From Escherichia coli (GTDB lineage Bacteria; Pseudomonadota; Gammaproteobacteria; Enterobacterales; Enterobacteriaceae): 64,000 bases of DNA. The stretch lies in assembly GCF_017348835.2 (NCBI RefSeq), contig NZ_CP071375.1, one strand, 5' to 3'. Positions 30,432-31,008 of the stretch are shown in pieces. Within the stretch, counting starts at the first letter, position 1; each line of letters begins with the position of its first letter. Below the pieces are notes generated by a model that worked only from the letters and a program-made list of their open reading frames with translations, did no database searches and was not told the origin of the DNA. A program made the position numbers and the translations under genes.

Positions 30432-30856
30432 AATAGTATATCCACGAGCTATTATGGTGGCAGTTTAAGTCTTAATACCATCCACTTTATTGAATTATAA
30501 CCAGCCACTTACGAAGGTTTTTCGCGATTACCCTGCTTCAAATTGATGATTTTGAAAATACAGTATTATAGTTTATTGTTTGTAGCGCAGCTGTAAGCGT
30601 TATGCAAAATGGATCACAGTGATACGACCTCACCAGTAAATCACTGAAGCCGATCTGTAATGACATAGAACGAATTGGTTTTATGGTTATGCAATGGCTC
30701 ATCCCCTTACTTGTCCCTGACCATAAAAAGCATTCGCTTTCCTGAAAGCAAGTCTAAGCCAAGGGGCGTTTACAGTTGTCTTATCTTGACTCATTAGGTA
30801 CTGGCTTAATGATTAGAATCATGTCGGTGGCATTTAGGTCCAAATATGCCCAAAAT

Positions 30857-30869
30857 TTTAGCAGCTAAA
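30857..30869. promoter_or_regulatory. 13-bp palindrome TTTAGCAGCTAAA (KorB operator-like variant), copy 3
   Basis: Same arms with a central A; lies in the non-coding region downstream of the membrane-protein gene. Confidence 0.4.
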
Positions 30870-31008
30870 ATTCGTCTTCTCATGTAGGGTCAAGAAGCTT
30901 ATGACTAAACCTATTGATTATGTGAATTACCTTGTGAGTAATACTCGTAGGATGGAATCTTCCAAAACTCTGACAATTCACTCTGAATGCATGGTAACAA
31001 AGAACAGT

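Follow-up and report, generated by a model that had tools for sequence, protein, structure and literature searches.

A non-coding module of an Escherichia coli PIME1-type island: a candidate structured RNA beside a KorB-operator-like palindrome

Introduction

What a 577-bp stretch without a convincing open reading frame might be doing between two genes of a mobile island is the question raised by positions 30432-31008 of the E. coli chromosomal DNA analysed here, a stretch of 64 kb that we call the window. The gap extends from the stop codon of a luxR-family gene (30431, + strand) to that of a convergent gene for a 209-aa protein (31009, - strand), and it is present at full length, 577 bp at 97-100% identity, in 31 complete E. 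coli genomes. A sequence-only reading had pointed to a variant palindrome within it, followed by a pyrimidine-rich block and an ATG, and had offered a regulatory RNA, a promoter or a decayed gene as possible contents, with structure and covariance prediction and alignment of homologous islands as ways to decide.

The island around the gap is of a kind described only recently. Pseudomonadota integrative mobilizable elements (PIMEs) were first reported in 2026, with about 1,100 elements in RefSeq genomes, and serve as reservoirs of defence and resistance genes (Perta et al., 'Pseudomonadota integrative mobilizable elements', bioRxiv January 2026, 10.64898/2026.01.12.698999). Elements of the PIME1 subfamily excise and replicate only with an IncP-1 plasmid (pB10, pKJK5), their int, luxR and alpA genes are essential for excision, and the replicating element lowers the copy number of its helper pB10; the authors call the inducer, the sensing mechanism and the reason for the lowered helper copy number unknown (10.64898/2026.01.12.698999). 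The terms KorB, operator, palindrome, sRNA and non-coding do not occur in the text of that preprint (10.64898/2026.01.12.698999), and neither the RNA candidate nor the conserved KorB operator described below is mentioned there or in the literature that we searched.

Results

An IS3-truncated PIME1-type island at guaA

Gene content and insertion site mark the island at guaA as a PIME1-type integrative mobilizable element (Table 1). PGAP annotation of an identical locus gives int, divergent luxR-family and alpA genes, a gene for a RepA-type helicase (repA), traJ, trbJ and trbL, without a full T4SS; the island also has an IncP-like oriT, and the element is integrated beside guaA (33257-34834) with a tyrosine integrase. 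Integration at the 3' end of guaA and all of these components are shared with the PIME1 subfamily, among whose relatives are GIsul2, BcenGI2 and the IncP island. Pfam searches identified AlpA (E=6e-13) and matched RepA to AAA_25; they returned no match for the luxR-family protein, whose LuxR label is that of NCBI, or for the 209-aa protein.

Unlike the elements of the preprint, the window copy has been truncated by an IS3-family element (22546-23859, with 27-nt terminal inverted repeats at 22546-22572 and 23833-23859), which abuts yfgG and cuts the left part of the island inside a HigA-like antidote gene that is seen in intact relatives. No left end is visible, which leaves the window copy without one of the two ends of a PIME1 element. 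Since cargo and left end appear to have been deleted, the window copy is probably immobile. The strain that was studied experimentally, RHB23-C07, is not among the E. coli matches listed. On the - strand at 27500-27560, just downstream of a gene for a hypothetical protein of 253-257 aa that follows repA, there are (T/A)ACGGCCCG repeats which resemble iterons and fit the position of oriV in the preprint, downstream of the replicase.

Table 1. Positions in the window of the features in and around the gap (OB, KorB-operator-like palindrome)
Feature	Position	Strand	Basis or remark
OB copy within trbJ signal-peptide codons	26366..26378		as in R751 trbJ
OB copy between oriT/traJ module and replication module	27253..27265		motif count
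luxR-family regulator, PIME1 hallmark, upstream of RNA candidate in the same sense	29460..30431	+	annotation, homologues
Spacer 3' of luxR-family stop	30432..30542		common only to closely related group A islands
Sigma-70-like promoter, TTGATG-18-TATAGT	30543..30572	+	promoter scan, alignment A3
Conserved structured core, candidate ncRNA	30573..30800	+	conservation, consensus fold, covariance model
Weak terminator-like hairpin, GGCAT...ATGCC, then CAAAATTTT	30827..30856	+	stem alike in groups A and C
KorB-operator-like (OB/parS-like) palindrome, central A in place of G/C	30854..30872		core 30857-30869; extended 19-bp palindrome AATTTTAGCAGCTAAAATT
Spacer up to stop of convergent 209-aa gene	30873..31008		holds start of non-conserved 65-aa ORF (30901-31098)
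Hypothetical membrane-protein cargo gene, 209 aa, convergent, between two OB copies	31009..31638	-	annotation
OB copy between 209-aa gene and int 3' end	31693..31705		start of int-module homology block common to other islands
Tyrosine integrase, adjoining guaA	31762..32952	-	annotation

No gene, live or decayed, is found in the gap

Homologues of the central part of the gap fall into three sequence groups: A (the window, Phytobacter and several metagenome contigs), B (E. coli S30, Citrobacter and others) and C (E. coli EcPF16, Buttiauxella, Erwinia and others). The gap is non-coding, and neither a live gene nor the remains of one could be detected in it. No PGAP feature lies under it among the 30 full-length E. 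coli matches listed (of 31), and six-frame translation of representatives of the three groups found no frame that is open in all of them, every frame on both strands carrying stops in at least one group. The groups are separated by 1-nt indels, and most of the substitutions in the longest frames that they share are non-synonymous. The pyrimidine-rich block is there, as is the ATG at 30901 that opens a 65-aa ORF (30901-31098) overlapping the 3' end of the convergent gene; in four of the five close relatives (L004, L117, L125 and L136, the four closest from outside E. coli) this ORF meets a stop at codon 3 (ATG ACT TAA). Comparison of the gap with the corresponding regions of related islands by tblastn and tblastx recovered the ends of the flanking genes and the palindrome only. 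The earlier remark that the gap has no convincing ORF is thus borne out, no ORF in it being either annotated or conserved, while a protein-coding or decayed gene is rejected, as the related islands show no conserved ORF and no residual protein similarity.

Only the middle of the gap is shared with other island types

In a DNA search of E. coli genomes, only 30563-30798 (to 30880 in some) was common to other types of island, at 79-85% identity. This core occurs in 98 of 5426 complete E. coli genomes and, among the matches listed, also in Phytobacter, Citrobacter, Buttiauxella, Erwinia and contigs of metagenome and viral collections. The islands that share it have flanking tra and int modules which are 92-98% identical, clearly above the identity of the core, and a replication/alpA/luxR module that is unrelated at the DNA level; the LuxR-like proteins next to the core are 39% identical between those island types and the window. 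On the 5' side, 30432-30542 showed no similarity to groups B and C (alignments A1 and A3) and is absent from the Lonsdalea island L005.

The core itself comes and goes among related islands. L005 shares its luxR type and its cargo gene with the window, but has 188 unrelated bp in place of the core, and searches of about 55 more distant PIME1 loci with the covariance model (R1) and nhmmer found no copy of it. Because it is absent from these loci, the module is, to judge by its distribution, optional and dispensable among islands. In islands of the Xanthomonas/Burkholderiales type the equivalent ~350 bp are an alpA gene.

No similarity to the core was found in plasmid and phage collections, and Rfam 15 gave no match at the gathering threshold (an 8-kb search, and narrow searches of two variants at E<=10), the best hits being eukaryotic snoRNA models far below threshold. 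On its distribution, the core is a candidate for a new family of RNA, restricted to enterobacterial PIME1 islands and carried by ~2% of complete E. coli genomes. A MITE-like insertion bounded by the 12-13-bp inverted repeat was rejected, as conservation runs past both arms and no other copies are found in the genomes. The same holds for an oriV or oriT in the gap: the preprint places both outside it, oriV downstream of repA and oriT beside traJ, and the replication modules that accompany the core are of two unrelated kinds.

The core has a conserved fold on one strand

RNAalifold predicts, for the + strand of the core, three stem-loop domains enclosed by a closing helix of 13 bp (30587-30599 paired to 30767-30779). 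The consensus comprises 61 pairs, with 99% of cells paired, and includes 5 compensatory double changes along with ~15 one-sided changes that keep pairing via G-U; when the structures were slid by 1-3 columns as a control, only 33-44% of cells could pair. Since the sequences in support of the structure are also those used to predict it, a column-shuffle control was also run, in which alignment columns were permuted within conservation classes and then refolded. The + strand consensus reached -50.6 kcal/mol against -31.1 +/- 4.0 for the shuffled columns (z=-4.8; none of 100 shuffles was as good), whereas the - strand gave z=-0.45 under the same control, and the conserved structure of the core is thus, in these models, specific to the + strand. 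The covariance model matches the window at 30573-30800 with 270.6 bits.

For the window sequence folded singly the RNA z-score is a modest -1.36, and its minimum free energy fold differs internally from the consensus; independent covariation events are few, because only three clades contribute. Structure and covariance prediction, one of the checks suggested at the outset, accordingly found a consensus fold that is conserved in the core on one strand, and this structure, with its covariation on the strand that would be transcribed, agrees with an independent sRNA gene. Of the three options first offered, regulatory RNA is the one that this evidence favours, although the candidate lies at 30573-30800, on the upstream side of the palindrome, and has no tie to the pyrimidine-rich block and ATG to which attention had been drawn.

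Predicted transcription signals flank the core

The predicted + strand promoter just upstream of the core (Table 1) has a -10 element whose counterpart in the alignment of groups B and C is an extended -10, TGtTATGAT; the scan itself matched a promoter in groups A and C, while group B shows the extended -10. In L096, a metagenome variant, the core starts ~25-40 nt after the luxR stop without a promoter match. On the 3' side, the terminator-like hairpin of the window has a homologue in group C with an 8-bp stem followed by TTCATATTTT. The stem is kept between groups A and C while the loops differ, and the U-run merges into the palindrome. The terminator scan scored the hairpin of group C (L003 9269-9300, +) and left that of the window unscored; group B has no terminator but other sequence at this place, which runs into an 83-aa ORF. 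Since group B lacks the terminator and L096 the promoter, the RNA may belong to a longer transcript in some contexts, where it may be a leader or 3' UTR element.

A - strand promoter match (30883-30855, extended -10 TGcTAAAAT) overlaps the palindrome. The suggestion of a promoter in the gap is supported in part: the sigma-70-like + strand match has a -10 that is kept in other groups, and the match over the palindrome exists in the window variant only.

In group B (L002 9326-9991, +) two genes come after the RNA candidate in the same direction, one for the 83-aa protein, which has no Pfam match, and one for a lipoprotein of the EexN (entry-exclusion) family. The latter would be a second exclusion-type function besides the trbJ-trbL region.

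The palindrome matches the KorB operator save for its central base

The variant palindrome reported at 30857, TTTAGCAGCTAAA, is present at 30857-30869. What the sequence-only reading missed is that it corresponds to the IncP-1 KorB operator (OB). KorB belongs to the ParB family and acts as a global regulator in IncP-1 plasmids; its operator has the published 13-bp consensus TTTAGCGGCTAAA, for which T/A flanks are favourable (PMC5577506). Against TTTAGC(G/C)GCTAAA, all 12 arm positions match at the 30857 site and the central base, at 30863, is A. Compared with the plasmid operator TTTAGCSGCTAAA, bound by KorB as a CTP-dependent sliding clamp and repressor, the 30857 copy is therefore identical save for the central base and shares the T/A flanks.

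The motif TTTAGCNGCTAAA, with the central base left free, occurs four times in the 64-kb window (26366, 27253, 30857 and 31693), always inside the island, where 0.18 would be expected by chance and none of 100 shuffles reached four. The other three copies are canonical. The central A is found in 5/5 group A sequences, which are close relatives, and distant islands likewise have some other sites with A or T at the centre, whereas the 10 OB sites of R751 all have a central G or C. The island resembles IncP-1 plasmids in having multiple copies, including one in trbJ; its sites differ in being chromosomal, in the central A at 30857 and in having neither KorB, IncC and KorA genes nor a KorA operator nearby.

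The palindrome is held constant across a wide range of related islands. Sixty-two loci encoding relatives of the luxR-family protein were fetched, one genome per species, and 57 could be examined; in ~45 of the 57, from alpha-, beta- and gammaproteobacteria, an OB lies within ~30 bp of the luxR stop or just after the luxR-alpA pair. The related islands have 2-4 copies per locus, and the LuxR-like proteins of these loci diverge to 39-55% identity. Because the palindrome stays the same while the islands' own regulators drift, OB is, by this comparison of loci, a conserved backbone feature of the PIME1 family, and its constancy fits a constraint imposed by the KorB of the helper. No KorB gene was found in the island, and IncC and KorA are likewise not encoded, so KorB would have to come from the helper plasmid. 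By analogy with the parS mimicry of SGI1, we infer that KorB from an incoming IncP-1 helper binds the OB sites of the island.

A search of the island for a KorA operator found none. A TrbA-like 10-mer, CGATATATTG, lies at 27178-27187 (+), 66 bp from the 27253 OB on the oriT-proximal side, one mismatch away from the TrbA operator consensus CGATATATCG; two such sites were found where 1.56 are expected, which is chance level.

The copy in trbJ coincides with part of the coding sequence for the TrbJ signal peptide (..I/F-L-A-A-K..). Nearly all related islands share this arrangement with the island of the window and with R751 (L186, 25579-25591), which points to a long-conserved site with a dual role in coding and binding. 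About 57 bp around the 30857 OB are a diverged duplicate of the int-proximal OB region at 31678-31734 (repeat D2), and this duplication therefore suggests that the 209-aa cargo gene between the two was inserted through recombination at an OB. Blocks of similarity between variants of the island start or stop at OB copies or close to them (window 27078, 30563-30880 and 31677-31693), and the int module starts exactly at the 31693 OB. Palindromes of 17-19 bp conserved in this way may serve as crossover points for module shuffling.

Islands of the Xanthomonas/Burkholderiales type show a further arrangement, in which TCATTGACACTTGAGGGGCGC-N4-OB stands inverted on both sides of the luxR-alpA segment (L016 4650-4690 and 8312-8350; also L011, L014, L018, L021, L023, L029, L031-L035, L038 and L050). 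The two copies look like convergent promoters, with a consensus -35 TTGACA and OB over the -10/+1 region, and one of them would read antisense into alpA-luxR.

Discussion

We propose, with a little more than even confidence, that the gap is a non-coding accessory module made up of a structured RNA, probably regulatory, and a KorB recruitment site that ties the island to the partition and silencing system of its helper. The + strand transcription unit would begin at the sigma-70 promoter at 30543-30572, start near 30579 and end weakly near 30856 at the hairpin and U-run, and its product would be a structured RNA of ~230-280 nt containing the core. As the second component, OB would abut the 3' end of this unit. 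Through helper-supplied KorB bound at its OB sites, the island, once excised and replicating, would be able to use the partition and silencing machinery of the helper, as happens with SGI1 and IncC ParB, and the recruitment of KorB to island sites would account for the reported interference with the helper. The RNA itself may act as a regulator of the island's regulatory/integration module or of the interplay with the helper. What is constant is its position: the candidate follows luxR closely on the same strand, has one or two OB copies beside it and is oriented towards the 3' end of either int or a cargo gene. A search for targets by duplexfold against the 5' regions of island genes put no gene above background, and complementarity between the core and R751 is at chance level.

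That the conserved structure is made as RNA is what the folding models lead us to infer, and two other uses of a fold have to be weighed against it. The + strand might act as single-stranded DNA in the recipient, either as an ssi signal for priming or as an Frpo-like single-strand promoter. The island oriT aligns +/+ with that of R751, with the nick between TCCTG and CCC at 26978/26979 on the + strand and transfer proceeding rightwards, so the core would enter the recipient as + strand ssDNA ~3.6 kb behind the nick; its three stem-loops recall the architecture of G4-type ssi signals, and the covariation signal remains with DNA parameters (z=-2.15). However, the ssDNA consensus fold amounts to only -9 kcal/mol over ~230 nt, the single window sequence folds no better than its shuffles (z=-0.08), and ~16% of the core pairs are G-U/G-T. 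Transcription is also favoured by the conserved double-strand promoter, which is suitably spaced upstream of the core, and by the group C terminator downstream; no -35/-10 pair lies within any stem, the core has no similarity to any plasmid record, and IncP helpers bring their own primase, all of which makes a role as ssDNA quite improbable. A structure that works as RNA, but in cis within a longer transcript, is unlikely too, although there are contexts that suit it. As a stabiliser or processing site in the luxR mRNA 3' UTR, it would explain why the core is always downstream of luxR in the same sense and why in L096 it follows the luxR stop so closely with no promoter match; as a 5' leader of cargo genes, it would suit group B, where no terminator intervenes before a same-strand 83-aa ORF with a good Shine-Dalgarno and the EexN-family gene. 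Yet groups A and C have no + strand gene downstream, the -10 element is kept in all three groups, and the core accompanies two luxR types that are only 39% identical while being absent from an island with the same luxR type.

It might also be asked whether the gap has any function at all, as neutral filler left by module shuffling would suit islands that are mosaics with breakpoints at or near OB and whose flanking tra and int modules are more alike than the core, which both L005 and the more distant family members do without; conservation would then reflect recent common descent. Neutral decay, however, would not keep 99% of the predicted pairs through ~20 substitutions, and on one strand only, nor would it keep the -10 hexamer and the 3' hairpin stem while the loops change, and we regard this explanation as very unlikely. 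Hardly any credence can be given to the last alternatives, that the likeness to KorB sites is coincidental and the palindromes are operators of an island regulator, LuxR-like or AlpA, or that the gap encodes a small protein or a decayed gene. The island does encode two DNA-binding regulators, and the - strand promoter match overlaps the palindrome; but the 13-mer is invariant across elements of alpha-, beta- and gammaproteobacteria in which the LuxR-like proteins have fallen to 39-55% identity, and it is the helper's operator down to the preferred T/A flanks, with one copy in trbJ exactly as in R751. Small ORFs exist in the gap, and in SGI1 a small protein is the analogous intergenic factor, but conservation of an ORF is not seen here, nor is homology to proteins of related islands.

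The closest parallel to the proposed recruitment of KorB is SGI1, which carries mimics of the IncC parS and uses the helper's ParAB for its own stability, thereby expelling the helper (Muranyi et al., NAR 2024, PMC10954446). Both are mobilizable islands with copies of the site at which the helper's ParB-type protein binds, both disturb the helper while they replicate, the one indication of this for PIME1 being the lowered pB10 copy number of the preprint, and both have a further factor in a neighbouring intergenic region; when compared with the OB sites of R751, the island sites are identical to the helper's ParB-type site, the 30857 copy save for the central base. The two differ in the helper protein, which is IncC ParB for SGI1 and, as deduced here from sequence, IncP-1 KorB for PIME1, and in the extra factor, a small protein (Sci) in SGI1 where the PIME1 gap has no conserved ORF and an RNA structure is conserved instead.

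An OB just downstream of the essential luxR/alpA module offers a concrete hypothesis for how PIME1 senses its helper and depresses the helper's copy number. In parallel to the way in which SGI1 hijacks IncC ParB, recruited KorB could be turned to partition hijack or titration, or to silencing or de-silencing, and the adjacent structured RNA adds a second uncharacterised player to the same regulatory neighbourhood. A bolder version, to which we assign a low probability, has RNA and KorB operator work together as the helper-sensing switch of PIME1: KorB clamps loaded at OB upon entry of an IncP-1 plasmid would alter transcription or termination of the RNA and convergent transcription into int or luxR, and this change would trigger excision and replication. 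If it were true, the RNA would be the first non-coding regulator shown to couple an integrative mobilizable element to the ParB-type global regulator of its helper.

Structured non-coding elements of integrative or conjugative elements, known mainly from covariation, include traJ-II, STAXI, int-alpA and P4 CI RNA. The core differs from these in architecture and position, and it matches no Rfam family at E<=10. A traJ-II motif does occur elsewhere in the window, upstream of traJ at 26883-26981 (-), with 86.9 bits and E=2.7e-16 in Rfam. A weak Rfam match to the Trp operon leader lies at 33182-33253 (-) in the gap between guaA and the integrase gene (30.6 bits against a gathering score of 41, E=0.004) and is probably due to chance or to the attachment region. 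The traJ-II match shares sequence with the part of the island that can be aligned to the inverted repeat and nick region of the R751 oriT, and because of this overlap the 'RNA motif' and the DNA structure of oriT may be one and the same sequence.
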